From an uncultured Gammaproteobacteria bacterium (GTDB taxonomy: Bacteria > Pseudomonadota > Gammaproteobacteria > Steroidobacterales > Steroidobacteraceae), in contig CAWFXH010000011.1 of NCBI GenBank assembly GCA_963819705.1, forward strand, positions 7,529 through 71,528: DNA of 64,000 nt. Direction: 5' to 3'. The notes under the pieces were generated by a model. It searched no databases. It worked only from the letters and a program-made list of their open reading frames with translations, and was not told the origin of the DNA. Made by a program: the position numbers and the translations under genes. Below, piece by piece: positions 10,722 through 64,000 of this stretch. Each line of letters begins with the position of its first letter. Position 1 is the stretch's first letter.

Positions 10722-12533
10722 ATGCAAGCGAAACTCCGGATCGCCAGGAATGCCGCCGCTGCCGCGCTCGCAGGGGCACTGGTCTCGGCCTGCCAGCTGG
10801 CCGGATTGCCCGCGCTCGGCGGACCCGACGCTGCCGTCGAGCGCGCTCAACGGCAGTCGCGCCAGGGCGATCACGCTGCGGCTGCGCGGAGCTACGAATC
10901 GGCCGCGCGCGGCGTTTCTGCCGGCGCCGGCAATCCGCTCTGGCTGGCGGCGGCCGGTGAGTGGCTCGCAGGGGCCGATGTCGCCGCGGCGGAGGCCGCG
11001 ATCGCAAACCTGGCGCCGCCGCTGGCCGCCGCGGATTCGCACGAGCAACGCCGGCTCGATGCGGAGATCGCGCTGATGCGCGGCGACGCGGCGCGCGCGG
11101 CCGAGATCATGCAAGGCGTTTCCGGGGACGACGCGGCCACCCTCGCCACGCGAGCCCGCGTGCAGTTCGGGAACCTCCGTGTCGCGGACGCAGTTTCGAC
11201 CCTGATCGCACGCGATGGGCTGCTCGCGAACGCAGTCGACCGGCAGGCGAACCAGCGGATGATCGTGGACGGCATCCAGGCCGCGGTGCTTCGGGGCGGC
11301 AGCGCGCAGCCGCCCAAGGGTGCGGATCCGGTGCTCGCGGGCTGGCTCGAGCTCGGGCGGATACTCGCCGACGCAAAATCCGGCGCGCTCGGCTCGCAGC
11401 GCCGGCTGCAAGCCTGGCACGAACGCTATCCGGCCCACCCGGCAAGCGACTCACTGTGGAAGGGAATCGCCGAGCACCCGACGGCGCCGGGTGAGCGACC
11501 GCATCAGGTTGCGCTGCTACTGCCCCTGTCGGGGCGGGCGGCGCCTGCGGGCAGCGCGGTTCGCGACGGATTCCTCGCGGCCTACTACGACGAGGGAAGC
11601 CCGTCGCGTCCACGCGTTCGCATCTACGACGTCTCCGAACGCGACACACCTTCCACCTACCTCCAGGCGCTCGCGGACGGCAGCGATTTCATCGTCGGCC
11701 CGCTCACTCGCGAGGAAGTCACCGACCTCGCCTCGGTGGCGGATGGCCGCGCGGTGACGCTCGCGCTCAATTTCCTGCCGGATGGCGTGCAGGTGCCCGA
11801 CCGGTTCTTTCAATACGCGCTGTCGCCCGAAGACGAGGCGCGGCTTGCGGCACGCCGCATCGTCGCCGACGGCCGCACGAGCGGAGTGACGCTGGTGCCA
11901 CAGTCCGACTGGGGCCGGCGTGTGCAAGCCGCTTTCGCGGAGGAATTTGCGGCGGCCGGCGGCCGGATCGTGGACCAGGCGGACTACCTGCCGTCAACCG
12001 CGGATTTCAACGAGCTGCTGCGCCGGCTCCTGCGCACGACCGGCCAGCGCGGCAGCGCTCCGCGCGCGGACGCCGAGTTCATCTTCGTTGCCGCGCAACC
12101 CGTGCATGGCCGGCTGATCCGGACCCAGCTGCGATTCAACTACGCGAGCGCGCTGCCCATGTACGCGACCTCGGATATCTACGACCCGGCAGGCCCGGGT
12201 AACGTGGACCTCGACGGAGTGATTTTTCCGGACATGCCCTGGGTACTCGATCCAAATGGGCCTTCGGCAGTTGCCCAGGACACCGCAGATCGCGTGTTCC
12301 CCGGTCGCGGCGGGCCGCTCGGCCGCCTCTATGCCTTCGGCTACGACGCGTTCCGCCTGGTCCGCGAGCTGCCGCGCCTGCGCGCGGGGAGCGACGTCGC
12401 GCTGCCGGGCCTGACCGGACGACTCGAGATCGACAGCCAGGGCCGGGTGCGACGCGAACTTGGCTGGGCGCAAATCGTCGGCGGGCGTCTCTTGCCATGG
12501 CCGCCGCCGCTCCTGACCGAGCCAGTCTCGTGA
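10722..12533 (+). CDS. lpoA: Penicillin-binding protein activator LpoA (LppC family lipoprotein)
   Basis: ATG at 10722 inside track ORF 9822..12533. Lipoprotein signal MQAKLRIARNAAAAALAGALVSAC, an N-terminal TPR-like region and a C-terminal periplasmic-binding-like domain. Conserved divergent rsmI/lpoA-yraN arrangement. Confidence 0.85.
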   Translation: MQAKLRIARNAAAAALAGALVSACQLAGLPALGGPDAAVERAQRQSRQGDHAAAARSYESAARGVSAGAGNPLWLAAAGEWLAGADVAAAEAAIANLAPPLAAADSHEQRRLDAEIALMRGDAARAAEIMQGVSGDDAATLATRARVQFGNLRVADAVSTLIARDGLLANAVDRQANQRMIVDGIQAAVLRGGSAQPPKGADPVLAGWLELGRILADAKSGALGSQRRLQAWHERYPAHPASDSLWKGIAEHPTAPGERPHQVALLLPLSGRAAPAGSAVRDGFLAAYYDEGSPSRPRVRIYDVSERDTPSTYLQALADGSDFIVGPLTREEVTDLASVADGRAVTLALNFLPDGVQVPDRFFQYALSPEDEARLAARRIVADGRTSGVTLVPQSDWGRRVQAAFAEEFAAAGGRIVDQADYLPSTADFNELLRRLLRTTGQRGSAPRADAEFIFVAAQPVHGRLIRTQLRFNYASALPMYATSDIYDPAGPGNVDLDGVIFPDMPWVLDPNGPSAVAQDTADRVFPGRGGPLGRLYAFGYDAFRLVRELPRLRAGSDVALPGLTGRLEIDSQGRVRRELGWAQIVGGRLLPWPPPLLTEPVS

Positions 12534-12898
12534 GCGCCGCGCCGCACCTGGCACTCGGCCGCGCGGCCGAGGCCGCGGCGGCGCGCCATCTCGAACGGCT
12601 GGACTACCGGATTATCGCGACCAATTTCCGCGCGAAAGGTGGCGAGCTCGACATCGTCGCACTGGATGGCGAAGAGCTTGCAATTGTGGAAGTCCGCTAC
12701 CGTGCCAGCGACCGTTTCGGGAGCGCCGCGGCAAGCATCACGCCTAACAAGCGCCGCCACATCATCCGCGCTGCCCGCACCCTGCTTGCCACCAACCCGC
12801 CGCTCGCCAGACTGGCGGCGCGATTCGACGTCGTCGAAGTGAGTGGCCCCGCCGATGACCTCCGCTGCCAGCTGATTCGCGGCGCATTCAGTCTCTAA
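12497..12898 (+). CDS. yraN: YraN family (UPF0102) endonuclease-like protein
   Basis: 133-aa ORF with the YraN core (GELDIVALDGEELAIVEVRYR...RFDVVEV). Follows lpoA as in E. coli. An alternative GTG start at 12530 would overlap the lpoA stop as GTGA. Confidence 0.8.
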   Translation: MAAAAPDRASLVSAAPHLALGRAAEAAAARHLERLDYRIIATNFRAKGGELDIVALDGEELAIVEVRYRASDRFGSAAASITPNKRRHIIRAARTLLATNPPLARLAARFDVVEVSGPADDLRCQLIRGAFSL

Positions 12899-12906
12899 GG
12901 CATTTG

Positions 12907-12955
12907 CCGCGCCGCGAGCGGGGTCCGGCGGGGTGTCCCCTCGCTCGCGGCGCGG
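12907..12955. terminator. GC-rich hairpin between convergent yraN and sspB (likely bidirectional terminator)
   Basis: CCGCGCCGCGAGCGGGG (12907-12923) pairs with 12939-12955 (17 bp, one G-U) around a 15-nt loop. It fills the 70-nt convergent gap. No clear U-tract. Confidence 0.6.
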
Positions 12956-12969
12956 GAAGCGTGTCGCAG

Positions 12970-13362
12970 TTACTTGATGACCCGCAGCTTCGGCCGGCTT
13001 CCTGTGTCTCCGGCGCCGCCTGCCGCCGGCGGGGGCGCTTCGCCCTCGTCCTGGAAAAGCATCCCCTGCCCCGTCTCGCGCGCGTAGATGCCGAGCACCG
13101 CGTTGACCGGCACCCGTACCTGCTGCGCGACGCCGCCGAAGCGCGCGGAGAATTCGATCCATTCGTTGCCGAGTTTGAGTCGCTGCGTTGCCTGCCAGCT
13201 CACGTTGAGTGTGATGCGTCCGTCCCGGACAAAGGCACGCGGCACTTCGGTGCTTGCGACGCCCGCATCGACGACGAGATGCGGCGTCTGGTTGTTCGCG
13301 GTCATCCATTCGTGCATCGCGCGAACCAGGTATGGACGCCTGGGTGTCGGAGCCGCGGCCAT
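12970..13362 (-). CDS. sspB: ClpXP adaptor / stringent starvation protein B
   Basis: 130-aa ORF. The N-terminus PRRPYLVRAMHEWMTANNQTPHLVVDA...ITLNVS matches the SspB substrate-binding domain. C-terminal LRVIK ClpX-binding tail. GAGAGG SD 8 nt upstream. Confidence 0.88.
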   Translation of the reverse strand: MAAAPTPRRPYLVRAMHEWMTANNQTPHLVVDAGVASTEVPRAFVRDGRITLNVSWQATQRLKLGNEWIEFSARFGGVAQQVRVPVNAVLGIYARETGQGMLFQDEGEAPPPAAGGAGDTGSRPKLRVIK

Positions 13363-49958: not shown

Positions 49959-50615
49959 TCAGCCCGGGCCGCCTTTCAGCGCGGCTTCCAGCCGCTCATC
50001 GACCTCGTCGAGCGTGCCGTCGGCATCGATGTGGCGCAGCAACCCTTTTTTTGCGTAGTAGTCGATAAGCGGCTGCGTGCGCTCCCGATAGACCGCAAGG
50101 CGCCGGCGCACCGTTTCGTCGTTGTCGTCGGGCCGCTGGAACAGGTCGTGCGGCTCGCCGTCGGTGCAGCGGTCGCCAGCCCTGGGCGGATTTGTCTCGA
50201 CGTGGAAAACTCGGCCGCAGCGGCGGCAGCTGCGGCGGCCCTCGAGGCGCTTGCGCAGCACTTCGGGATCGATGTCGAACAGGATGACGGCGTCAATCGG
50301 CTGGCTGATCTCCTCGAGGAGCGCGGCGAGTCCGTCTGCCTGCACGATGGTCCGTGGAAATCCGTCGAGGATGAATCCGCGCACCGCGTCCGGCCGCGCG
50401 AGCCGCTCGCGGATGATGCCGAGCATGATGCGGTCGTCGACGAGCTGTCCCGCATCCATGACGGCTTTCGCCGCGCGCCCGAGCTCGGTGCCGGCGGCGA
50501 CGGCCTCGCGCAGCAGGTCGCCCGTCGATACCTGGGGCACGCCGTTCCGCGCCTGCAATCGTTGCGCCTGCGTGCCCTTGCCCGATCCGGGCGCGCCGAG
50601 CAATACGAGCCTCAT
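49959..50615 (-). CDS. adk: Adenylate kinase
   Basis: 218-aa ORF, MRLVLLGAPGSGKGTQAQRL...; LID with CRRCGRVFH. Confidence 0.95.
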   Translation of the reverse strand: MRLVLLGAPGSGKGTQAQRLQARNGVPQVSTGDLLREAVAAGTELGRAAKAVMDAGQLVDDRIMLGIIRERLARPDAVRGFILDGFPRTIVQADGLAALLEEISQPIDAVILFDIDPEVLRKRLEGRRSCRRCGRVFHVETNPPRAGDRCTDGEPHDLFQRPDDNDETVRRRLAVYRERTQPLIDYYAKKGLLRHIDADGTLDEVDERLEAALKGGPG

Positions 50616-50752
50616 TCCGTCAAACTCCGCGGGCGGCTGCCCGACGAGGGGCGCCCATCCTGCCCGCGGCCCGGAATCGCGTCAAACCGGGCCGAATCGG
50701 CTATGCTTCGCCCCCCACGGGGCGCGCCAGCGCCCGCCAGGCGGATCTGACG

Positions 50753-52039
50753 ATGGCGAAATCGAGGACCCGGCGACCCCGGCCGCGCAATGCGCTTTAC
50801 GCGCAATCGGGGGGCGTCACCGCCGTCATCAACGCGACCGCCTGCGGCGTGATCGAGGCCTGCCGCAGGCACCGGAGCCGCATCGGCCGCCTGTACGCCG
50901 GACACGACGGCATCGTCGGCGCGCTTACCGAGGATCTCATCGACACCGGCCGCGAGAGCGTGGCGACGATTCGCGCGCTGCGCCACACGCCGTCCGGCGC
51001 CTTTGGCTCGGCACGCTACAAGCTCAAGGACCTCGAGCGCGATCGCGCCAAGTACGAGCGCCTGATCGAGGTGTTCCGCGCGCATGACATCGGCTACTTC
51101 TTCTACAACGGCGGCAACGACTCGATGGACACGGCGCTGAAGCTCAGCCAACTGGGCGCACAGGCCGGCTATCCGGTCGCCTGCATCGGCATCCCGAAGA
51201 CGGTCGACAACGACCTGCCGGTCACGGACTGCTGCCCCGGCTTCGGCTCGGTCGCGAAATACGTCGCCGTATCGACGCTCGAGGCATCCCTGGATGTCGC
51301 GTCCATGGCCAGGACCTCGACGCGCGTCTTCATCCTCGAGGTGATGGGACGCCACGCGGGCTGGATTGCGGCCGCGGGCGGCCTGGCCGCGCGCAACGCG
51401 GGCGACCCCCCGCACATCATCCTGTTCCCGGAAATCCCGTTCGAGCGCGAGCGATTCCTGGCGCGCGTGAAGGAGACCGTCGAACGGCAGGGTTACTGCG
51501 TGGTCGTCGCTTCCGAGGGCACGCGCGACGCCGAGGGAAAGTTCCTGTCGGACATGGGAACCAAGGATGCCTTCGGCCACGTCCAGCTCGGCGGCGTGGC
51601 ACCCACGCTCGCACAGATGGTCAAGCAGGCACACGGCTACAAGTACCACTGGGCGCTCGCCGATTACCTGCAGCGCTCTGCGCGCCACATCGCCTCGCGC
51701 GTGGATGTCGAACAGGCCTACGCCGTCGGCCGCGCGGCAGTCGAACTCGCACTCGCGGGCAAGAACGCGGTCATGCCGGTCATCCGTCGCAAGTCATCGA
51801 AGCCCTATCGATGGGATATTGTCTCGGTCGGCATCGAGGCCGTCGCCAATCGCGAAAAAATGGTGCCGCGGAATTTCATCACCGGTGACGGCTTTGGCAT
51901 CACCGCCGCCGGCCGGCGCTACCTCGAACCGTTGATCGAAGGCGAGTCTTATCCGCCTTACAAGAACGGAATTCCCGCGTACGCGACGCTCAAGGGCGCG
52001 CGCGTGCGCAGGCGGCTCAAGACGACCTTCGTGGTATGA
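50753..52039 (+). CDS. pfp: Pyrophosphate-dependent 6-phosphofructokinase
   Basis: 428-aa ORF in the PFK family. The phosphoryl-donor determinants read GGNDS (Asp at the position of E. coli Gly104) and PKTVDND (Lys at Gly124), the published PPi-specific pattern. Confidence 0.88.
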   Translation: MAKSRTRRPRPRNALYAQSGGVTAVINATACGVIEACRRHRSRIGRLYAGHDGIVGALTEDLIDTGRESVATIRALRHTPSGAFGSARYKLKDLERDRAKYERLIEVFRAHDIGYFFYNGGNDSMDTALKLSQLGAQAGYPVACIGIPKTVDNDLPVTDCCPGFGSVAKYVAVSTLEASLDVASMARTSTRVFILEVMGRHAGWIAAAGGLAARNAGDPPHIILFPEIPFERERFLARVKETVERQGYCVVVASEGTRDAEGKFLSDMGTKDAFGHVQLGGVAPTLAQMVKQAHGYKYHWALADYLQRSARHIASRVDVEQAYAVGRAAVELALAGKNAVMPVIRRKSSKPYRWDIVSVGIEAVANREKMVPRNFITGDGFGITAAGRRYLEPLIEGESYPPYKNGIPAYATLKGARVRRRLKTTFVV

Positions 52040-52063
52040 TTTTCGTTTCCTGGGAGTAATTTC

Positions 52064-54100
52064 ATGTCGATGCAAGCAGCGCTCTGGCTCGCGATCGCGG
52101 CCGGCGTGGTCGCCATTCTCTACGGCGTGTTCTCGGCGCGCTGGATCCTCGCCCAGCCCGCGGGCAGCGCGCGCATGCAGGAGATCGCCGCGGCGATCCA
52201 GCAGGGCGCCGGTGCATACCTGAACCGTCAGTACACGACGATTGCGATCGTCGGCACGCTGCTCTTCGTCGTGCTCGGCTTCGCGCTCGACTGGTATACG
52301 GCGGTCGGCTTCGCGCTCGGCGCAGTCCTCTCGGGCTCCGCGGGCTACATCGGCATGAACGTCTCCGTGCGCGCCAACGTGCGCACCGCCCATGCCGCCA
52401 GCGTCGGCCTCAATCCGGCGCTGCAGGTCGCGTTCCGCGGCGGCGCGATCACGGGGCTGCTGGTCGTCGGCCTCGGGCTCATCGGCGTCGCGGCTTACTA
52501 TGCCGTCATGATGCGGCTCACGGGCGACAGCGACCACTCGCTGCATGCGCTCGTCGGGCTCGCCTTCGGCGGCTCGCTGATTTCGATCTTCGCGCGCCTC
52601 GGCGGCGGCATCTTCACCAAGGGCGCCGACGTTGGCGCAGACCTGGTCGGAAAGGTGGAGGCCGGGATTCCCGAGGATGACCCGCGCAATCCGGCCGTGA
52701 TCGCGGACAACGTCGGCGACAACGTCGGCGACTGTGCCGGCATGGCCGCAGACCTGTTCGAAACCTACGCAGTCACGGTCGTCGCGACCATGCTGCTCGC
52801 GGGCCTGATGATGAAGGATCTCGGCAACGCGGCGGTGCTCTACCCGCTCGTGCTCGGCGCGGTCTCGATCGTCGCCTCGATCGTCGGCACCTTTTTCGTC
52901 AAGGTGAAGGAAGGCGGCAAGATCATGGGCGCGCTCTATCGCGGCGTGATCGTTTCTGGCGTCATCGCGGCCATCGCCTACTACCCGATCACCAGGATGA
53001 TGCTGGGCGAAGCGGCAATGCCGCTTTATTACTGCGCGCTGATCGGGCTCGGCCTGACGGCAGCGATGATCTGGATCACGGAGTACTACACCGCGACCGA
53101 GTTCAAACCCGTGCGTTACGTCGCCGAGGCTTCGCAGACCGGGCATGGCACGAACGTGATCGCGGGCCTCGCGGTGTCGATGAAGTCGACCGCGCTGCCG
53201 GTGCTCTCGATCTGCGCAGCGATCTGGGGTGCCTACTCGCTGCAGGGCCTGTACGGCATCGCAATCGCGGCGACCGCCATGCTGTCGATGACGGGCATGA
53301 TCGTGGCGCTCGATGCTTACGGCCCGATCACCGACAACGCCGGCGGCATCGCAGAAATGAGCGGCTTGCCGAAGGACGTGCGCAAGATCACCGACGCGCT
53401 CGACGCGGTCGGCAACACGACCAAGGCGGTGACCAAGGGCTACGCAATCGGCTCCGCCGGCCTCGCAGCCCTGGTGCTGTTCGCCGACTACACGCACAAC
53501 CTGGAGATCGCCGGCAAGCTCGAGGCATTCAGCCTCTCTGACCCGGCGGTCATCATCGGCCTCTTCATCGGCGGCCTCGTACCTTACCTCTTTGCCGCGA
53601 TGGCAATGGAGGCCGTTGGCCGTGCAGCCGGCTCCGTCGTCATCGAGGTCCGGCGCCAGTTCCGCGAGATCAAGGGCATCATGGAAGGCACCGGGAAGCC
53701 AGACTATTCGCGCGCCGTGGACATGCTGACCCGCGCGGCAATCCGCGAGATGATCCTGCCGTCGTTGCTTCCGATCCTGATCCCGGTGGTGGTCGGCTTT
53801 GGAATGAACTTCCTGCTCGGCCCGGGCGCCGGCATCCGCGCTCTTGGCGGCGTGCTGATCGGCACGATCGTGACGGGCCTGTTCGTTGCTATCTCGATGT
53901 GCACCGGCGGCGGTGCCTGGGACAATGCCAAGAAGTACATCGAGGAAGGCCATTTCGGCGGCAAGGGATCGGAAACGCACAAGGCGGCCGTCACCGGCGA
54001 CACCGTCGGCGACCCGTACAAGGACACCGCGGGACCGGCGATCAACCCGCTGATCAAGATCATCAACATCGTGGCGCTGTTGCTCGTTCCGCTGTTGTAA
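52064..54100 (+). CDS. hppA: Membrane-integral H+-translocating pyrophosphatase, K+-independent type
   Basis: 678-aa polytopic ORF with PPase motifs ([28 protein letters not shown]). [10 protein letters not shown] carries the Lys/Thr pair diagnostic of K+-independent enzymes. Confidence 0.95.
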
Positions 54101-56020: not shown

Positions 56021-56441
56021 TGCTCCTCAATGAATGCCGGGCTCACAATCGATTCGGCCCGGTCCACTGCGGCTGCGCCCAGTGGCGAGTCATCGGGGGT
56101 AACTTCGCGATTTCGCTTCAGGTTTGGCCCCGGCACCGCTGCAACTACGTACTGCACGAGATGAGACGACGCCTGAGGGTATCCTGCCGGTCGGTCGCGG
56201 GTCTGTGCGGGAGCGAACATGGCATTCGCCTTGCACCGCGGCCGCAAAGGAGGCGTGTGCGCCCCTTTTCAGGTACTGCGCATTCGCCTGCTTCGACCTC
56301 GAGAAAGCCGCTCCTTGGTCGCATTTATTCCGCGCCCTTATGTCAACAGTCCGCGCGCGCCGAGCATTTTCGGATTAGTTTTTGTGACTGCAGTCGCAGG
56401 TTGTGTCGCGCGCGCGGAGCGCTTGCGAATCGAGGAAAGGG

Positions 56442-57911
56442 ATGTCCACAGCGGAAGTCACGGGCGCTCCTCCGCGCCACGACGAGACGGCCAGTTTTCG
56501 CGTCGTGTCCGCGTCGATCGCGTGGGCGCGTCCTGGAGCCGGTGAGCCGCCGTCGATTGCACTCGTCAGGGAACATCTGAATTCCGCCGTCGTCGCCGGA
56601 GCACTGCTGTTGACGGCGGCACTTCACGGGCAACGCGTCGACGGCCCGTACCTGGCGCTCGCTGCCTGCGCCTACGCGGTGTCGCTCAAGGTGATGACGC
56701 AGCCGAGGCTCGAACGTGTTGGCAACAGGTCGGACTGGGGACGCATCCTCCGCCATCGCGCGATCGAGTGGGCATGTGTCGCAGGCATCCTGCTGCTCGC
56801 CGGCTACTTCCTGCGGGTCACCCGCCTCTTTCCCGGCCGCGTGCTGTTGACCTGGCTGCTCGCAACGCCGTTCGCGCTCGCCGCCGCGCACGGAGCGGCG
56901 CGGCTCCTCGCCGCTCGCGTGTTCAGGCGCAGCGGCGCGCAGCGCCGGCTGGTCATCGTGGGCGCAAACCGGGTCGGTGCCGAGCTCGCCACGAGGCTCG
57001 CCGAAGCGCCGTGGCTCGGCACTGTGGCGGGATTCTTCGATGACCGGCGGCTGGAGCGCCTGCCGCCGGCAACGCGGCCGCGACTGCTCGGCAAGTTTGC
57101 CGACCTGCCAGAGTACGCGAGGCAGCAGGGCGTGCACGTCATTTACGTCTGCCTGCCGATGTCAGGCCACCCGAGGATTCGGGCGTTGCTTAACTTCCTC
57201 GGAGATACCACGGCCTCGATCTACTTCGTACCCGACCTGTCGGCTTTCGACCTGATGCAGGCCCGCTTCGGTCAGATCCGCGGCATGCCCCTTGTCGCCG
57301 TGCGCGAAACCCCATTCTGCGGCATGGCCGGTGTGCTGAAGCGCGGCAGCGACATTCTGCTCGCGACGACCGCATTACTGCTGGTCGCGCCGATGCTGAT
57401 CGTGATCGCAATCGGCGTGAAGCGATCCTCGCCCGGGCCGGTTTTCTTCAGGCAGCGCCGGTATGGCCTCGATGGCCGCGAATTCCTCGTCTATAAGTTC
57501 CGCACGATGACCGTTTGCGAGGACGACCCGCTGATGCAGGCGACCCGCTTCGACCTCAGGGTCACGCCGGTGGGCGCGTTCCTGCGGCGCACGTCGCTCG
57601 ACGAGCTGCCCCAGCTCCTCAATGTTCTCGAGGGCAGCATGAGCCTTGTCGGCCCGAGGCCGCACGCCGTCGCGCACAACGAGCGCTACCGCAAGCTGGT
57701 GAGCGGCTACATGCTGCGGCACAAGGTGCGCCCCGGCATCACCGGTCTCGCCCAGGTCAACGGGCTGCGTGGCGAAACGGTGGACGTCGAGAAGATGCGC
57801 CAGCGCGTCGCCTTCGACCTCGAGTACCTCAAGCATTGGTCGCTCGGCCTCGACCTGCGGATCCTCCTGAAAACCGCCCGCCTCGTGTGGAGCGACAAGA
57901 ACGCCTACTGA
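56442..57911 (+). CDS. Undecaprenyl-phosphate hexose-1-phosphate transferase (WcaJ/GumD-like priming glycosyltransferase)
   Basis: ATG at 56442 after GAGGAAAGGG (the track ORF starts at GTG 56403). N-terminal TM block, then the bacterial sugar transferase domain ([26 protein letters not shown]...[21 protein letters not shown]...[10 protein letters not shown]). Confidence 0.88.
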
Positions 57912-57923
57912 AGGCAACCAGGC

Positions 57924-58811
57924 CTACCAGTCGTCGTTCGCGGCATAGCCGAGTTCGACGAGGAGCGGGCCGGCTATCCGCTTGAACAGGCGCCGGTCAT
58001 TTTCGTCCAGGTCCCGCTGCCAGCGGCCCAATGAGGCCGTGCTGACGGCCGTGAGCGCTTCCGGATTCTGGGCAAAGCGCGTGGAGTCACGAAACGGCGA
58101 TGCCGCTCCCGCGTGCGCGAGCATGGCCTCGTCCCAATCCTCTCCGAGGAAGGCCATCAGCCTCTCGAGGGCCGGCCGCGGATTCAGGACCAGCTCTTCG
58201 TAGCGGACGGTATGAAAGCGCGGATCGTTCCACCAGCGGCGCGAGCCCTCGATGTCGCGAACCCAGCGCCGGGCGCAGCCGGCGATGGGTTTCCAGGTGT
58301 CGAGCGGGACCAGCCTGCCGTTCTCGACGCGATGGCGCGGATGGGTCCGCAGTGAACAGGCGACGTCGCGGCCATCGCGCAGCACCTGCACGAACCGCGT
58401 CTCGGGAAAGCAGCGGAAGATCGAGGCGATGTGCCCGATATTGCGCGGTGTCTTCTCCGCCCAGCGCGCCTTTCCCGCCTTTCGCATGCAGAGCGCGGCA
58501 AAGCCCTCGATGAACTCCGGGCGCGAGCGGGCCCGGTCGTAGATCGCGCGCATCTCCTCACGGCCAAAGCCGAACCTGTCAGCGAGCGCATCGGGATCGA
58601 GCGCCCGCCGCCTGAATACGCTTGACTCCGGACCGCAGCAGATCCGGTGGTGCGAGTCGAGCATCATCCGGAGCAGCGTCGTCCCCGAACGACCGCAGCC
58701 ACCGAGCACGATTGGCGTCAAGCCGGGCGGGTGCCCGATCACGAACGAATCGGCCGGATGGCCGAGACCGATCGCGCCGCCGATCATCCTGAATAATCCC
58801 GGTGCGCCCAT
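57924..58811 (-). CDS. TPST-like (tyrosylprotein-sulfotransferase/RaxST-like) sulfotransferase
   Basis: 295-aa ORF. From memory, it is colinear with animal TPST across the catalytic domain: 5'-PSB LGGCGRSGTTLLRMMLDSHHRICCGPE; VLRDGRDVACSL; VRYEELVLNPRPALERLMAFLGEDWDEAML; SLGRWQRDL...IAGPLLVELGY. Confidence 0.8.
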   Translation of the reverse strand: MGAPGLFRMIGGAIGLGHPADSFVIGHPPGLTPIVLGGCGRSGTTLLRMMLDSHHRICCGPESSVFRRRALDPDALADRFGFGREEMRAIYDRARSRPEFIEGFAALCMRKAGKARWAEKTPRNIGHIASIFRCFPETRFVQVLRDGRDVACSLRTHPRHRVENGRLVPLDTWKPIAGCARRWVRDIEGSRRWWNDPRFHTVRYEELVLNPRPALERLMAFLGEDWDEAMLAHAGAASPFRDSTRFAQNPEALTAVSTASLGRWQRDLDENDRRLFKRIAGPLLVELGYAANDDW

Positions 58812-58880
58812 GCCGGACGCACTCTAAGTCATCTGCCGGCCGCGCGCCCGGATGACAGGGCGGCGCATCGATGCGACCAT

Positions 58881-59870
58881 GTGGTCATGTCCGTCACGCG
58901 CGTCCGCGCCGCCGCAATCCTCCTGTGCATGGTGCTGCCGCGGGCCGCCGAGGCCGCGGACGATCCGGTCGTGCTGCCGCCCGGCATCGCGACCCACGTT
59001 GACGGGCGCGCGCCCATCGAGTCGCTCTACCGCAGTGCTCTCGGCCTCGTCGAAAGGGGCTGGACCGTGGACGTGATCACGGAGTCCTCGCCCGCGGGCA
59101 CGGCGGCGGGCCTGCCGATCATCGCGCTGCGCTCGCCGAAGTCCGGGCCGGCAGTCTGGATACTCGCGGGAATCCATGGCGAGGAACCCGCCGGGCCGAA
59201 CGCGGTCGCGGCGACCATCGAAGAAATTGCAAAGCTCGGCGCTGTCCGGCCAGTGGTGCTTCTGCCACTGCTGAACCCGCAGGGTTATGCCCGAAACTGG
59301 CGCTACCTCAATGTTCCCGTCTATTCCGAAACCATCGACGGGCAGAGCGTCGGCGATTCCTCGCACCTGCTTCCTGACGCCGGGAATCCGGCACAACCGC
59401 GGGCGGCGGCGGCCTCGAGCCCTGAGGCGGATGCGATTACCGCCTATGTCCTTTCCCGCCTCGCGGACTACCCGCCCGTCTGCAGCATCGACTTGCACGA
59501 GGACAACCTGATCGACGAGGGCTACGTCTACTCGCAGGGCGCCGAAGGCGCCGGGGACCCCCTCGCCATCGCGGCCGTGGCCGTGCTGAGGGAGAACGGC
59601 GTACCCATCAAGACGGAGGGCATGACGCGCTTCGACGAAACGGTCGTGCACGGTATCGTCGGGCCGGTCACCGACAGCTCGATTGACGAACTGATGAGTG
59701 CGCGCCGAATTGTCGTGGGCGGCGTGCCGCGGCCCGGACCGGCCGCGCACACCGTGCTCGTGTTCGAGACTCCGGCTGCTGCCCTCCCGCTGGAGCAGCG
59801 CATCGCGGCCCACGCCGCCCTGTTGCGCCGGCTCGCGGCGATCCTGGCTTCGGCGCCTGACGGGAACTGA
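58881..59870 (+). CDS. Secreted M14-like zinc carboxypeptidase / AstE-AspA-fold protein
   Basis: 329-aa ORF (GTG 58881 or ATG 58887). Signal peptide ...LLCMVLPRAAEA. Zinc-ligand-like HxxE (AGIHGEEPAG) and a later DLHED. Family assignment rests on motifs only. Confidence 0.65.
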   Translation: MVMSVTRVRAAAILLCMVLPRAAEAADDPVVLPPGIATHVDGRAPIESLYRSALGLVERGWTVDVITESSPAGTAAGLPIIALRSPKSGPAVWILAGIHGEEPAGPNAVAATIEEIAKLGAVRPVVLLPLLNPQGYARNWRYLNVPVYSETIDGQSVGDSSHLLPDAGNPAQPRAAAASSPEADAITAYVLSRLADYPPVCSIDLHEDNLIDEGYVYSQGAEGAGDPLAIAAVAVLRENGVPIKTEGMTRFDETVVHGIVGPVTDSSIDELMSARRIVVGGVPRPGPAAHTVLVFETPAAALPLEQRIAAHAALLRRLAAILASAPDGN

Positions 59871-59880
59871 TCCGCCGCCG

Positions 59881-61944
59881 ATGCATCCGCCGACCGCACC
59901 CAAGGCCGTATTCAACGAGTCCATCGGCCTCATCAACGCCGGCGAGCTGGGAGCCGCCGAGGCGCGCTGCCGCGCCGCGCTCACGAAATACCCGGGCGAC
60001 ATCAACTTGCAGGCCCTGCTCGGCGCTTTGCTCGTCAAGCGGGATCGCCGCGAGGAGGCGGAACAGCTTCTGCGCGGGGTGATCGCCGCCGCTCCCTCTT
60101 TTGCCAAGCCCGCGGAGGACCTGGGATTTCTCCTGTTGCAGGAGGGTCGGGCCGCCGATGCCCTGCCCTTCCTCGAACGCGCAACCCGCCTCGATCCGAC
60201 TCTCGAGCGCGCCTGGTTCACGCTCGGCAAGGCGCTCGCGCTCCTCGGCCGCGGGCAGGACGCGGATGCCGCATTCGAGAAGTGCTTCGAGCGCTCGCCA
60301 GAACGGCGGCTCATGGCGCTCGCGGCCGAGCACCAGAAGGAGGGCCGCATCGACGAAGCCGAGCGGCTGTACCGCCGCGTGCTGCGCCAGAGCCCGCGCA
60401 ATGTCGATGCCCTGCGCCTGCTCGCCCTGATCGCGGTACGGGCCGATCGTGGCGACGACGCCGAGCTCCTGCTGCGGCAGGCGATCGGGATCGCGCCTGA
60501 CTTCATCCTGGCGGTCCTCGACCTCGGTCGGCTGCTCAAGGACCAGGACCGCTACGGCGAAGCCCTCGATTGCTTCGACCGCGCGATCGCGCTCGATCCG
60601 TCGCATCCCCCGGCACACTACCTGCGGGCCTCGACTCTCGCGCGGGCGTCATTCACCGACGACGCCATTGAAGCGTACCGGCGGTGCCTCGAGCTGAAGA
60701 CCGATCATATCGGAGCGCTGCTCGGACTCGGCCACATGCTGAAGGCCGTCGGACGCTACGACGAATGCGTCGCGTCATACCAGGCGTGCATCCGGCATGC
60801 GCCGGACTTCGGCGAGACCTACTGGAGCCTCGCAAACCTCAAGACCTACCGCTTCGACGACCAGGCGGTCGCGGAGATGGAGAAGCGCGCTGCGGCCGGC
60901 GGCGAGAATGAGCAGTCGCAGGTGAATTTCCTGTTCGCCCTCGGCAAGGCATACGAGGACCGTCGTGACTTTGAGCGCGCCTGGCACTTTTACCGCAGCG
61001 GCAACGCGGCACAGCGGTCGCAGATCGCCTACGACCCGGTGCAGACCGAAGTCATGAACGACCGGCTCATCGAGGTCTACACCGCGGAATTCCTGCAGTC
61101 ACTGCGCGGCGCCGGGAATCCCGACCCATCGCCGGTCTTCATCCTCGGCCTGCCGCGTTCGGGCTCGACCCTGCTCGAACAGATCCTGGCGAGCCACGGC
61201 CAGGTCGAGGGCACCAGCGAGCTACCGTACATCGGCCGCGTCGCGACGTCGCTCAATCGCAACCGCGCAGATGGCGTCAACTACCCGGAAGCCATGCGCG
61301 AGCTCGCGCCGGCAAACGTGGCGGCGCTCGGCGCCGATTACCTCGCCCAGGCGCACATGCACCGCCGGACCGGCGCGCCGAGATTCATTGACAAGATGCC
61401 GAATAACTTCCCCAATGTCGGCCTGATCGCGGCCATCCTGCCGAACGCGAAAATCATCGATGCGCGGCGGCATCCGCTCGATGCGTGCCTGTCCTGCTAC
61501 CGGCAGCTGTTCGCCAAGGGCCAGAACTTCACCTACGACCTGACGGAGATCGGGGAATATTACCTGCAGTACCAGCGGATGATGAACCACTGGTCGCGCG
61601 TGCTGCCCGGACGCGTGCTCACCGTGCAATACGAAGAAGTCGTCAGCAATTTCGAGGCGCAGGTGCGGCGGCTGCTCGCATTCTGCGGCCTGCCCTGGGA
61701 CGACGCCTGCCTGAAATTCCACGAGAGCGACCGCCCGGTCAGGACACCGTCGGCCGAACAGGTGCGCCAGCCGATCTACGACCGTTCGATCGGCCACTGG
61801 CGGCACTACCAGCGCTACCTCGACGAGCTGATCGAGGTCATCGATCCGATCCGGGACCGCTACCGGCGCTACGAGCCCGCGGTCGGCGACTCCGCCCTCG
61901 CCGGGGGCGAGAGTCGCCCGGGAATGGCCCCGGGAGGAACGTAG
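59881..61944 (+). CDS. TPR-repeat protein fused to a C-terminal TPST-like sulfotransferase domain
   Basis: ATG at 59881 within track ORF 59698..61944. ~430 aa of TPR-type helical repeats, then LGLPRSGSTLLEQIL (5'-PSB), LPNAKIIDARRHPLD, VQYEEVVSNFEAQVRRLLAFCGLPWDDACLKFHE and SIGHWRHY. Starts 10 nt after the M14-like gene. Confidence 0.85.
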   Translation: MHPPTAPKAVFNESIGLINAGELGAAEARCRAALTKYPGDINLQALLGALLVKRDRREEAEQLLRGVIAAAPSFAKPAEDLGFLLLQEGRAADALPFLERATRLDPTLERAWFTLGKALALLGRGQDADAAFEKCFERSPERRLMALAAEHQKEGRIDEAERLYRRVLRQSPRNVDALRLLALIAVRADRGDDAELLLRQAIGIAPDFILAVLDLGRLLKDQDRYGEALDCFDRAIALDPSHPPAHYLRASTLARASFTDDAIEAYRRCLELKTDHIGALLGLGHMLKAVGRYDECVASYQACIRHAPDFGETYWSLANLKTYRFDDQAVAEMEKRAAAGGENEQSQVNFLFALGKAYEDRRDFERAWHFYRSGNAAQRSQIAYDPVQTEVMNDRLIEVYTAEFLQSLRGAGNPDPSPVFILGLPRSGSTLLEQILASHGQVEGTSELPYIGRVATSLNRNRADGVNYPEAMRELAPANVAALGADYLAQAHMHRRTGAPRFIDKMPNNFPNVGLIAAILPNAKIIDARRHPLDACLSCYRQLFAKGQNFTYDLTEIGEYYLQYQRMMNHWSRVLPGRVLTVQYEEVVSNFEAQVRRLLAFCGLPWDDACLKFHESDRPVRTPSAEQVRQPIYDRSIGHWRHYQRYLDELIEVIDPIRDRYRRYEPAVGDSALAGGESRPGMAPGGT

Positions 61945-62471
61945 TCGAAGATGAAATTGATCCGGTCCGCGACGCCCTTGTTCATGACGCTGTGGACCTT
62001 CTGGTTGTTGATCTCGTAAGCCTCGCCGACTTCGAGCTGGTAGGGGCGCCCGTCGATCATGAATCGCACGCGCGGGTTGGTCACGATCGGGATGTGGATG
62101 CGGTGGCCGGCGCCGAACGACGGGTGCGAATCACGGTGCGGGATGATGCGGCCGCCGGCGAGCAGCTTGGCGGCCATCGCGCGGATGATGGTCCCGCCCG
62201 GCGGATACCACTTGCCGATGATCTCGTGCATCACCGGCACCGCAACCTTGGCCAGCCGGTCCCAGCCGGGCTGCTTGCTCACCTCGACCGCCGGCCAGCC
62301 GTCGACTTCGGCGAACAGCAGCACGATCGATCGCGTCTGCTCGTGCACTTCGTAGTCGTTCTGGCGCTGGACGTTCTCCTTCCAGGCCGCCTCGTCCTGC
62401 CCGAGGATGGCGTCGCCAAGTGCCGCCATCTCGATCTTGCCGAAGCTGCGGAGCGGGACTCCGATGTCCAT
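61869..62471 (-). CDS. Aspartyl/asparaginyl beta-hydroxylase-family 2OG/Fe(II) oxygenase
   Basis: ATG at 62471 (MDIGVPLRSFGK...), a 1-nt overlap with the receptor stop (TGATG). Facial-triad-like HRD...H (IIPHRDSH ... NQKVHSV). 200 aa. The upstream part of track ORF 61869..62609 lies inside the receptor gene. Confidence 0.8.
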   Translation of the reverse strand: MDIGVPLRSFGKIEMAALGDAILGQDEAAWKENVQRQNDYEVHEQTRSIVLLFAEVDGWPAVEVSKQPGWDRLAKVAVPVMHEIIGKWYPPGGTIIRAMAAKLLAGGRIIPHRDSHPSFGAGHRIHIPIVTNPRVRFMIDGRPYQLEVGEAYEINNQKVHSVMNKGVADRINFIFDYVPPGAIPGRLSPPARAESPTAGS

Positions 62472-64000
62472 CAGAACTCGTAGCGGAACTGCAACCCCAG
62501 CGTGCGCGGCCGGTTGATCGACTGGCGCTGCGGTGTGGCCCAGCGATTGCTCAAGAACAGGTTGGCCCGTTCGTCCGTGAAGTTTTCGATGAAGAGCGAG
62601 GTCGTCCAATGTTCGCCCTCGAGGCCGACCCGGAGGTCCCCTGTCTGGTAGGCGTCCTGCACCTGCACGCCGGCTCCGCCGACAACTGACTCGATGCCTT
62701 CGAGGTTGTTGACCGACTCACCGACGTAAGCGAGGTCGATCCGCCCGAACGGCTGAGCGTCAAACAGCCGGCCACGTGAGCGGTACTCAAGCCCGAGCGT
62801 CGCACTCCAGTCCGGCGTCAGCGGCAGGCGCGCACCCTTCGTGACCGGGATTTCGTACGTGACGTTGCTGGAATCCGTGAGCGACAGCACGGTGGCCTGG
62901 GACACTTTCCCGTCGTTCCAGCCCAGTGTCGCATCGACCTGCCAGGCGTCGTTGACGACAAACGAAAACTCGGTTTCGACGCCGTTGATTTCGGCGGACG
63001 GCAGATTGACGTAACCGAGCTGGAACACCAGCGGCTGCGGGTCCTCGATCTGGACCGCGAAATCATCCCATTTCATCGTGTAGGCCGCGATATTGAATCG
63101 CAGCCGGTTTCCCAGCCACTCCGTCTTGGCGCCTATTTCGACATTCGTGAGCTTGTCTGACTTGTACACGTGCGGAAGGATCGAGATGGGTCGCACGGGA
63201 TTGGCGCCGCCGACCCGGAATCCCTCCGAATATGTCGCGTACACCATCCGATCATGGTTGAAGCGGTAAGTCAGGTTGAGCTTGCCGACCGAGCCGCTCT
63301 CATCCGAATGCGTGTTGGCGTCAGTGAGCGAAAAGCCGCTGAATCCCTCCGGCGACTCCTGGTGAAGCCCGAACTTGCGGTCGTATTCGAACCAGCGACC
63401 GCCGGCGGTGATCGTGAAGTTGTCGGTCACATCGAAGCCAAGCTCCCCGAAGACCGCCTTCTGGTCGAGCTCAGTATCGTACTTCCCGATGAACCAGGCT
63501 TCGGTCGGAGCCAGCGTGTTGTTGTAGACGTTGTATTCCAGGTAACTGAAGTAGGCGAAGGCTGGCGTGTTCTCGTAGCCGCGGACGTAACTGTCGAACT
63601 CGGTGTGGCCCGTCTCCTTGCTGTAGAAAACGCCGGCCAGCCAGGACCAGCGGCTTTCGGCGTCGTGGGACGACTGCAGTCGCGCCTCGAACGTGGTGAT
63701 GTCGGTATGTTCGTGGTTGGTCGCGAAGCCGCGCGGATCGCCGCCGAAGTCGTAGGCGAGCGAGTTGTAGTAGATCGCGGCCTGGTTGAAGCTGAACTCG
63801 TAGTCCGTCGCATCCGCCTCATAGGCAAACTTGCGGTCGAAATACGAACCGGATACCACGAGGTCGCCGAAAGGCAGCGAGGCGTTGAGGGTCAGCCCGA
63901 CCTGGTACCAGCGGTCGTTGAGGTTCTCGTTCTCGAAGCGCGCCTGCTTGAGGTCGCCCGCGCCGACCGTCACGTCGCCATGACCGCCGGCATGTGCATC
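62471..64000 (-). CDS. TonB-dependent receptor, C-terminal ~509 codons (the gene continues beyond the right edge)
   Basis: The frame is open to the window edge upstream of the track start at 63973. Beta-barrel-type alternating sequence ends in the OMP C-terminal motif LGLQFRYEF. Confidence 0.88.
   Translation of the reverse strand, partial: DAHAGGHGDVTVGAGDLKQARFENENLNDRWYQVGLTLNASLPFGDLVVSGSYFDRKFAYEADATDYEFSFNQAAIYYNSLAYDFGGDPRGFATNHEHTDITTFEARLQSSHDAESRWSWLAGVFYSKETGHTEFDSYVRGYENTPAFAYFSYLEYNVYNNTLAPTEAWFIGKYDTELDQKAVFGELGFDVTDNFTITAGGRWFEYDRKFGLHQESPEGFSGFSLTDANTHSDESGSVGKLNLTYRFNHDRMVYATYSEGFRVGGANPVRPISILPHVYKSDKLTNVEIGAKTEWLGNRLRFNIAAYTMKWDDFAVQIEDPQPLVFQLGYVNLPSAEINGVETEFSFVVNDAWQVDATLGWNDGKVSQATVLSLTDSSNVTYEIPVTKGARLPLTPDWSATLGLEYRSRGRLFDAQPFGRIDLAYVGESVNNLEGIESVVGGAGVQVQDAYQTGDLRVGLEGEHWTTSLFIENFTDERANLFLSNRWATPQRQSINRPRTLGLQFRYEF

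Follow-up and report, generated by a model that had tools for sequence, protein, structure and literature searches.

Conservation of a TonB-dependent receptor, a PF05118 dioxygenase and a TPR-sulfotransferase at the edge of a putative uptake locus of Steroidobacteraceae

The DNA analyzed here (the window) is a stretch of 64,000 nucleotides from an uncultured bacterium of the Steroidobacteraceae (contig CAWFXH010000011.1, positions 7,529 to 71,528). Five genes at its right end (57924-64000) encode a stand-alone sulfotransferase (ST1) and a sulfotransferase with a TPR domain (TPR-sulfotransferase), both resembling the tyrosylprotein sulfotransferases (TPSTs), a secreted M14-like hydrolase, a small Fe(II)/2-oxoglutarate (2OG) dioxygenase of family PF05118 and a TonB-dependent outer-membrane receptor. 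All five are present, as originally predicted, on the evidence of six-frame open reading frames (ORFs) and profile searches (Sulfotransfer_3, PF05118, AstE_AspA_cat/Peptidase_M14, TonB_dep_Rec_b-barrel) of this region. They do not, however, form the compact five-gene island that was proposed. The conserved unit consists of the receptor, the dioxygenase and the TPR-sulfotransferase, usually joined by a beta-propeller protein, and in relatives it continues to the right. From these comparisons, the five genes appear to be the left end of a larger, widely conserved uptake locus, in which the receptor and the dioxygenase would end a nine-gene operon.

Conservation of the receptor, dioxygenase and TPR-sulfotransferase

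A genome scan anchored on the dioxygenase (10-sequence alignment) yielded 80 loci, 62-93% identical, from Steroidobacteraceae, Woeseiaceae, Lysobacterales and related genomes. The proteins of the window and of loci L001 and L003 were mapped onto these loci by tblastn, and all locus ORFs were clustered. The counts below refer to the 48 loci with at least 7 kb on either side of the dioxygenase gene, a gene being scored if it lies within 7 kb. The TPR-sulfotransferase is found in 41 of the 48 and the receptor in 38, with three further loci carrying frameshifted receptor fragments; the association of the three genes exceeds chance. The beta-propeller protein, an unknown protein of 288-307 aa, is encoded in 29 loci, an ABC importer in about 20 and a Rieske oxygenase in 18. 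The M14-like hydrolase is present in 14, close relatives only, and ST1 in 9, all of them close Steroidobacteraceae relatives, while a priming glycosyltransferase is found in 4. Co-occurrence in related genomes, on which the proposed set of five depended, is thus borne out for the trio (41/48 for the TPR-sulfotransferase, 38-41/48 for the receptor) but not for the M14-like gene or ST1. In several loci from 'MFD' genome bins (L009, L016, L021 and L035), the same genes are split into two or three tblastn pieces; the splits look like assembly-error frameshifts rather than pseudogenes, and they lower the apparent receptor count.

The order of the genes varies between loci, while the membership holds. 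One type of arrangement in Woeseia has the TPR-sulfotransferase, the unknown propeller protein on the opposite strand, and then the receptor and the dioxygenase; in a second type, the dioxygenase, an MTHFR-like protein, a DUF6445 protein, the TPR-sulfotransferase and the receptor are encoded in one direction. The MTHFR-like (301 aa) and DUF6445 (243 aa) genes are seen in L050 (10592-12232), between the dioxygenase and the TPR-sulfotransferase on the same strand. A single strand of L038 carries the Rieske oxygenase, receptor, propeller, amidohydrolase, aminotransferase and TPR-sulfotransferase genes, and in L085 the TPR-sulfotransferase is the last gene of an operon with TetR, acyl-CoA dehydrogenase, PotF and ABC genes. 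Some genomes have two modules (e.g., L064 and L075). In the 25 more distant loci, the identity to the query is 62-70% for the dioxygenase, which is the most conserved core member, 41-61% for the TPR-sulfotransferase and 29-47% for the receptor.

A wider scan covered metagenome contigs with a dioxygenase subfamily that is 30-35% identical to the window protein. About 14 of these loci are at least 5 kb long and have a full-length dioxygenase homologue; the homologue adjoins a receptor gene in six of them and a Sulfotransfer_3 gene in five, such neighbors being seen, for example, in L111, L118, L104-L110 and L098. The dioxygenase, sulfotransferase and receptor occur together in L118, and in L111 the receptor, a 554-aa TPR-sulfotransferase and the dioxygenase lie beside a GH20 chitobiase. 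L098 encodes a 692-aa fusion of a PF05118 dioxygenase with TPRs (11196-13274), along with a stand-alone dioxygenase homologue and a 1058-aa receptor; the TPRs are accordingly attached to the hydroxylase in L098 and to the sulfotransferase in the window. Because the three-way association is found around homologues of only 30-35% identity and in differing contexts, it is old and not bound to one cargo pathway.

The proteins and their gene layout

The TPR-sulfotransferase (59881..61944, plus strand, 687 aa) consists of two parts, a TPR superhelix of about 340 residues at the N-terminus and, at the C-terminus, a TPST-like Sulfotransfer_3 domain (approximately 61132-61704), and lacks a signal peptide. 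Its start is one of two that were corrected relative to the mechanical ORFs, the other being that of the dioxygenase: the mechanical ORF (59698-61944) overlaps the M14-like gene, and the ATG at 59881 gives a length that agrees with the called genes in relatives. The protein matches Sulfotransfer_3 (E 1.4e-53) and many TPR models. The TPR part matches the TPRs of OGT and SPINDLY, those of OGT being the top PDB matches (E 2e-43), and the catalytic domain matches the TPST structure 8w5z (E 8e-10). With OGT and SPINDLY the enzyme shares the combination of an N-terminal TPR array and a C-terminal group-transfer domain. The catalytic domain is, however, unrelated to that of OGT (sulfotransferase versus GT41), and the TPR-to-TPR similarity is generic.

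ST1 (57924..58811, minus strand, 295 aa) is a stand-alone TPST-like sulfotransferase of the type dependent on 3′-phosphoadenosine 5′-phosphosulfate (PAPS), with a Sulfotransfer_3 E value of 1.6e-30. Its best sequence matches among solved structures are human TPST2 and TPST1 (E about 3e-18), over residues 32-290, which is the whole catalytic domain. The equivalents of TPST2 Arg78 (in the 5′-phosphosulfate-binding (5′-PSB) loop), Glu99, Lys158, Arg183 and Ser191 align in both sulfotransferases, as do the GRSGTT/PRSGST loop and the RDGR...S / RRHP...S motifs, and both enzymes have the PAPS motifs of the 5′-PSB loop (GxxRSGTT) and the 3′-phosphate-binding (3′-PB) element. The catalytic residues of TPST2 are Arg78, Glu99, Lys158 and Ser285. 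The Ser285 position is occupied by Gly in both ST1 (LGRW) and the TPR-sulfotransferase (IGHW), and the Arg, Glu and Lys equivalents are also kept in seven homologues of the latter. Judging from these motifs, both sulfotransferases look active, and the TPST-like label given to them originally is upheld. While they resemble TPST1 and TPST2 in the Sulfotransfer_3 fold, the best solved-structure match and the five aligned residues, they differ from these in an identity of about 25-30%, in the change of Ser285 to Gly, in a cytoplasmic rather than Golgi location and, in one of the copies, in the TPR domain. The sequences do not place them in the NodH/NoeE/LpsS families: against a cut-off of 500 bits, the NoeE model gives 41 bits for ST1 (a weak C-terminal match, E 9e-11) and 20 bits for the TPR-sulfotransferase, and no other glycan-sulfotransferase model matched either.

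ST1 appears to be a lineage-specific second sulfotransferase of the locus. In several relatives (e.g., L001 13661-18116), it is flanked on one strand by genes for two secreted proteins, a metallo-beta-lactamase-fold protein of 502 aa on one side and an S9-family peptidase on the other; both flanking genes are missing from the window.

The dioxygenase (61869..62471, minus strand) is a small, soluble protein of 200 aa. The mechanical ORF (61869-62609, 246 aa) is too long; the true ATG at 62471 shares one base with the receptor stop codon (TGATG), so that the two genes are translationally coupled, and the database holds a 200-aa protein that is 100% identical. The PF05118 match has an E value of 3.7e-10 (40 bits, cut-off 22.6), and the only other Pfam match is a weak one to Cupin_2. 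The H112-x-D114...H160 triad and R170 are kept in 34 homologues, down to 30% identity, and the enzyme looks active on this basis. The 120 best database matches are 78-100% identical, their named sources being Steroidobacteraceae metagenome-assembled genomes.

The AlphaFold (AF2) model of the dioxygenase is a confident globular double-stranded beta-helix (DSBH) fold (pLDDT 93.7). The search with the sequence gave no PDB match, and the best match of the model is L-proline cis-4-hydroxylase (4p7w, TMq 0.60), followed by a hydroxylase of a nucleoside-antibiotic pathway, proline 3-hydroxylase (1e5r) and a Burkholderia 2OG oxygenase, and then by human AspH. The TMq values are 0.5-0.6 for the proline cis-4- and 3-hydroxylases and about 0.45 for AspH. 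The protein shares with human AspH, the Asp/Asn beta-hydroxylase of EGF domains, the PF05118 match and a DSBH fold of 2OG-oxygenase topology. It differs from AspH in being a soluble protein of 200 aa with no TPR fusion, no membrane anchor seen and an HxD...H triad, AspH having two His metal ligands; it is a single domain with no TPR of its own, and inspection by eye finds no hydrophobic N-terminal segment. Since the fold is at least as close to the free-proline hydroxylases as to AspH, the proposed assignment to the AspH family holds as a PF05118 match, while the term AspH-like is a superfamily label only, with the proline hydroxylases closer in structure. The label does not distinguish a protein substrate from a small-molecule one. 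The LpxO model gives a weak match (E 1.7e-4, 21 bits, cut-off 500).

The part of the receptor within the window (62471..64000 and beyond, minus strand) comprises the C-terminal 509 residues, the window end truncating the protein at about residue 280 of about 788. It matches TonB_dep_Rec_b-barrel (E 2.6e-33) and is 65% identical to residues 280-788 of the L001 receptor; toward solved receptors the similarity is generic and concerns the plug of siderophore receptors. A Fur-box scan upstream of 64 module receptors gave two weak (6-mismatch) matches only, and regulation by iron is therefore unsupported. A conserved acidic D-A-T-[DTS]-Y-[EL] (D-x-T-x-Y) motif of the receptors was considered as a possible sulfation site; it may be a structural motif of the subfamily and is not counted as evidence.

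The M14/AstE-AspA-like protein (58887..59870, plus strand, 327 aa) has a mechanical ORF of 58881-59870(+), and its start at 58887 is that of the database protein P0391, which is 100% identical. The AstE_AspA_cat model gives 31 bits (cut-off 25), the Peptidase_M14 match is borderline (21.7 bits, cut-off 21.6), and the PDB matches 2qvp and 3ieh are weak. H97/E100 and H204 (the HxxE...H zinc site), E294 (the catalytic Glu) and an NPxG motif are invariant in 18 homologues, and the N-terminus resembles, by eye, a Sec signal (MSVTRVRAAAILLCMVLPRAAEA followed by AD). The protein is thus predicted to be a secreted zinc hydrolase, either a carboxypeptidase or a deacylase. About 907 homologues exist, and those with a named source are from Steroidobacteraceae. 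The gene stops 11 nt upstream of the TPR-sulfotransferase ATG on the same strand, and it lies directly upstream in every locus that has it.

The region is organized in three transcription units: ST1; the M14-like gene followed by the TPR-sulfotransferase; and the receptor followed by the dioxygenase. The sole non-coding gap of any size is the divergent intergenic region of 69 bp (58812..58880) between ST1 and the M14-like/TPR-sulfotransferase pair. No sigma-70-like site is found in it, the promoter and terminator scan being uninformative, and an Rfam search of the region and of L004 gave no match. At their 3′ ends, the TPR-sulfotransferase and dioxygenase genes converge and overlap by 76 nt (61869..61944), with the stop codons read directly. 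The same 76-nt overlap is seen in L001 (10528-10603), and similar ones in most Steroidobacteraceae loci; such an overlap could permit antisense or termination coupling. The GC content is 0.63-0.69 throughout the region, similar to the remaining window, and gives no sign of recent horizontal acquisition, so that a compositional island is not supported.

The operon beyond the window and the flanking genes

Over 7.7 kb, the window matches L004 collinearly with 88% nucleotide identity, and in L004 the receptor gene is preceded by Rieske, ABC, acyl-CoA dehydrogenase and TetR genes. In L001 and L003, the called genes form a one-strand run with gaps of -4 to 44 nt that ends with the receptor and then the dioxygenase. 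The order in L001 is TetR, acyl-CoA dehydrogenase, PotF-like binding protein, ABC ATPase (TOBE), two permeases, Rieske oxygenase, receptor and dioxygenase, and L003 has in addition the 288-aa unknown protein between the last two. On the opposite strand, the TPR-sulfotransferase and M14-like genes are oriented toward this run. The order from TetR to the dioxygenase recurs in about 25 further loci. We infer that the window likewise continues rightwards into a TetR/acyl-CoA dehydrogenase/PotF-type ABC/Rieske operon. The PotF-like protein scores 385 bits on the PotF model and the Rieske oxygenase 288 bits on that of the glycine-betaine monooxygenase GbcA, both below the equivalog cut-offs.

The beta-propeller protein is absent from the window and is found in relatives (e.g., L003 9114-9980 and L049 6442-7365). 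Its family has more than 5,800 members of about 307 aa, all named hypothetical, and searches of the PDB (by sequence), Pfam, NCBIfam and PHROG gave no match. The model, built from database homologues, is a beta-propeller (pLDDT 89.7) with generic structural neighbors only, and the invariant His, Cys and Glu of the family suggest a metal site.

In the Woeseia and Lysobacterales loci, the recurrent flanking genes encode class-III aminotransferases (PRK07480 subfamily, 769 bits), DAO-family oxidases, a PuuC-like aldehyde dehydrogenase, a PuuD-like C26 hydrolase, a glutamine-synthetase-like (PuuA-like) protein, and Amidohydro_3, MTHFR-like, PurU-like and dimethylglycine-dehydrogenase-like proteins. 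Apart from the aminotransferase, their NCBIfam matches lie below the equivalog cut-offs, which makes these proteins paralogues. Together with the PotF-like importer, the flanking genes point to the catabolism of amines, polyamines or N-methyl compounds.

To the left of ST1 are genes for a WcaJ-type undecaprenyl-phosphate glucose phosphotransferase (56403..57911, plus strand; TIGR03023, 479 bits, cut-off 411), a glycine-zipper protein, a metallophosphoesterase, an H+-pyrophosphatase, a PFK-family protein and an adenylate kinase. The priming glycosyltransferase does adjoin ST1, as originally described, but this association is restricted to the nearest relatives, the WcaJ-type gene being directly beside ST1 only in L004, L017 and L022 and within 7 kb of the dioxygenase in only 4 of the 48 loci. 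No other genes for polysaccharide assembly or export are found on either side of it in the region examined, and it is probably an incidental neighbor. Among these, the genes for the adenylate kinase (minus strand), the 428-aa PFK-family phosphofructokinase (plus strand) and the 678-aa membrane H+-pyrophosphatase (plus strand) are adjacent (49959-54100). The PFK-family protein may be pyrophosphate-dependent, which would make this a pyrophosphate-economy cluster.

The reported lack of PAPS-synthesis genes is reproduced, with no CysC, CysN or CysD homologue found by tblastn (E<=1e-5) in the 64-kb window or in the 80 genome loci. The sole CysC-like adenosine 5′-phosphosulfate (APS) kinase gene near any dioxygenase homologue is in the distant metagenome locus L117 (4857-5378), about 1.4 kb from a partial homologue, and is reminiscent of the sets with PAPS synthetases in Iyer et al. 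2010 (PMC2938197).

Possible roles of the locus

Our literature searches found no characterized system of this composition, in agreement with the original prediction, and no characterization of TPR-sulfotransferases, of DUF6445 or of sets of receptor, sulfotransferase and hydroxylase. The closest tested analogue in logic is the Caulobacter pair CciT-CciO, in which the CciT receptor strictly requires the cytoplasmic dioxygenase CciO through a chemistry that is unexplained, and which is co-conserved as PiuA-PiuC in Pseudomonas and Fiu-YbiX in E. coli (PMC12004947). As in these pairs, the receptor gene of the present locus shares an operon with the gene for a small cytoplasmic Fe(II)/2OG dioxygenase, and the two are widely conserved together. 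The locus is nevertheless not a member of that group. Its dioxygenase belongs to PF05118, with no match to a PiuC/YbiX-type model seen; PiuC and YbiX themselves belong to a different family. In relatives, a TetR-family gene heads the operon and no Fur box is supported, the TPR-sulfotransferase and usually the beta-propeller are added, and the neighbors are amine-catabolic rather than iron genes.

The reading that we tentatively favor, at somewhat less than even confidence, is a two-membrane, TonB-dependent locus for the uptake and processing of an organic nitrogen compound, in which the two cytoplasmic enzymes tailor the transported ligand. Since the conserved neighbors are a PotF-like importer and genes of amine and polyamine catabolism, the cargo would probably be an amine, a polyamine or a peptide-like molecule. 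Under the control of the TetR-type regulator, the receptor would carry the ligand over the outer membrane, the secreted M14/AstE-like hydrolase may trim it in the periplasm in this lineage, and the PotF-type ABC importer, which would be encoded just past the window, would carry it over the inner membrane. The dioxygenase and the TPR-sulfotransferase would then act in the cytoplasm on a ligand rather than on a protein, this ligand being the cargo once imported or else a partner ligand, made by the cell itself and needed by the receptor, and the likely order would be C-hydroxylation followed by O-sulfation. ST1 would be a second sulfotransferase gained in this lineage. In the relatives, the PotF-like protein, the TOBE ATPase, the two permeases and the flanking Puu-like enzymes, aminotransferase and DAO-family oxidases recall the PotFGHI putrescine importer and the Puu/Pau gamma-glutamylation pathway. 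We know of no outer-membrane receptor, dioxygenase or sulfotransferase in that classical polyamine pathway.

Several observations weigh against the uptake of a nitrogenous cargo. To our knowledge, no PAPS-dependent sulfotransferase takes part in a nutrient-uptake or catabolic pathway, and the tblastn searches for CysC, CysN and CysD place PAPS synthesis outside the locus. A TPR domain of some 340 residues and a TPST-like catalytic site favor an acceptor that is a protein or peptide over one that is a small amine. The higher identity of the dioxygenase than of the receptor in the distant loci (62-70% versus 29-47%) suggests a conserved target rather than a variable cargo, as does the occurrence of the trio beside differing cargo genes, such as the GH20 chitobiase of L111. 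The amine-catabolic neighbors themselves fall below the equivalog cut-offs and vary between lineages, and the right-hand operon, which we infer from relatives, lies outside the window.

The same observations bear on the main rival, modification of a protein, which we consider doubtful. It holds that the TPR superhelix binds an unfolded or nascent protein in the cytoplasm, that a Tyr of this protein is sulfated and an Asp, Asn or Pro hydroxylated by the dioxygenase, and that the function of the receptor depends on these marks; possible targets are the precursor of the co-encoded receptor or some other conserved protein of the envelope or of transport. That the closest solved relatives are TPSTs, with their catalytic residues kept, and that the joining of TPRs to a catalytic domain resembles OGT and SPINDLY are both in line with this proposal, and the TPRs on the dioxygenase of L098 suggest that both enzymes dock on a shared macromolecular partner. 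It would also account for a dioxygenase that is far more conserved than the receptor and for a trio that accompanies varied receptor subfamilies and cargo contexts. Among secreted proteins, only the receptor is encoded consistently in these loci, and its gene is translationally coupled to that of the dioxygenase. On the other hand, we know of no bacterial outer-membrane protein that is Tyr-sulfated or Asp-hydroxylated, the D-x-T-x-Y motif of the receptor may be merely structural, and the best structural neighbors of the dioxygenase act on free amino acids. In Caulobacter, moreover, the CciT receptor is still made without CciO (PMC12004947).

It is rather unlikely that the trio functions as a unit while ST1 and the M14-like gene are unrelated neighbors, kept in synteny merely through the close kinship of the compared genomes. 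The confinement of both genes to close relatives (9 and 14 of the 48 loci) would fit such a view, as would the presence of ST1 in another unit in several relatives, behind a metallo-beta-lactamase-fold gene and before an S9 peptidase gene. It is less easily reconciled with the position of the M14-like gene, 11 nt upstream of the TPR-sulfotransferase and directly upstream wherever it is present, or with the placing of ST1, another member of the same rare enzyme class, right next to the first.

One of the two models originally put forward, a sulfated and hydroxylated ribosomal peptide or small-protein signal, similar to RaxX or to a peptide of the RiPP class (made by ribosomes and modified after translation), that the M14-like protein trims and the receptor re-imports, received no direct support and is judged improbable. 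The TPST-like sulfotransferases, the PF05118 hydroxylase and the carboxypeptidase-like protein do all have peptide-modifying relatives, and sulfotransferase and aspartyl beta-hydroxylase genes occur in an apparent lasso-peptide cluster of Pontixanthobacter (PMC10040529). Iyer et al. 2010 described sets of beta-hydroxylase and sulfotransferase genes, predicting hydroxylation and then sulfation of co-encoded proteins, as well as sets of a TonB-class receptor with SapC, a tryptophan halogenase and JmjC (PMC2938197). The present locus is similar to these in the pairing of a hydroxylase with a sulfotransferase and in the tailoring enzymes that accompany a TonB-class receptor. The sets of that study contain PhyH-methyltransferase fusions, PAPS synthetases and collagen-like or tail-collar substrates, or else halogenases and SapC, and both of its mentions of TPRs concern families other than a TPR-sulfotransferase fusion (PMC2938197). 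None of these partner types is among the recurrent families of the compared loci. As the original prediction noted, the region has no precursor peptide gene, and the gaps between its genes, of at most 69 bp, leave no space for one. Unlike the Xanthomonas RaxST-RaxX-RaxA/B system, the locus has no RaxX-like precursor and no RaxA/RaxB-type exporter nearby, and the recurrent families of 83 loci include neither a precursor peptide gene nor a peptidase-containing ABC exporter accompanied by a membrane-fusion partner. Nor is an exporter, a leader peptidase, a cyclase or a RiPP recognition protein found in the window or in the 80 related loci. Most loci with the trio have no M14-like gene, and the conserved partners are importers and catabolic enzymes.

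The other original model, in which the enzymes decorate a glycan or lipid of the envelope as NodH, NoeE, LpsS, LpxO or OlsC do, with the WcaJ-type gene priming the glycan, is highly improbable: it can appeal to the abutment of that gene on ST1 and to the weak matches of ST1 to NoeE and of the dioxygenase to LpxO (E 9e-11 and 1.7e-4), but these reach only 41 and 21 bits against cut-offs of 500. Among solved structures, both sulfotransferases are closest to enzymes that sulfate proteins; the dioxygenase, at 200 aa, has a globular DSBH model and shows no hydrophobic N-terminal segment by eye, LpxO and OlsC being membrane proteins; the glycosyltransferase is within 7 kb in 4 of the 48 loci with no other glycan-assembly or export genes nearby, and nothing that is conserved links the set to glycan or lipid genes, so that this model too is without direct support.

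Gram-negative bacteria import scarce or bulky nutrients mainly through TonB-dependent receptors, and many of these receptors travel with cytoplasmic oxygenases, a link that was shown genetically only in 2025, for CciT-CciO. The locus extends this picture of receptor and oxygenase by a TPST-like, PAPS-dependent sulfotransferase that carries a large TPR domain and by an unannotated propeller family of more than 5,800 proteins. The Steroidobacteraceae and Woeseiaceae have been reported as abundant in soils and marine sediments. Knowledge of the substrate would either reveal that sulfation has a new role in nutrient uptake by bacteria or add a second studied case of bacterial TPST-type protein or peptide sulfation to that of RaxST, and it would also give a handle on a route of organic-nitrogen uptake in these poorly cultured groups. 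It is conceivable, although we hold it to be improbable on balance, that in several orders of Gammaproteobacteria from soil and sediment TonB-dependent uptake depends on a dedicated pair in the cytoplasm, a PF05118 hydroxylase and a TPR-guided TPST-like enzyme that hydroxylate and sulfate a peptide or protein, namely the receptor precursor or a conserved ligand or partner. If such a modifying pair exists, TPST-type sulfation would be an integral step of bacterial outer-membrane transport.

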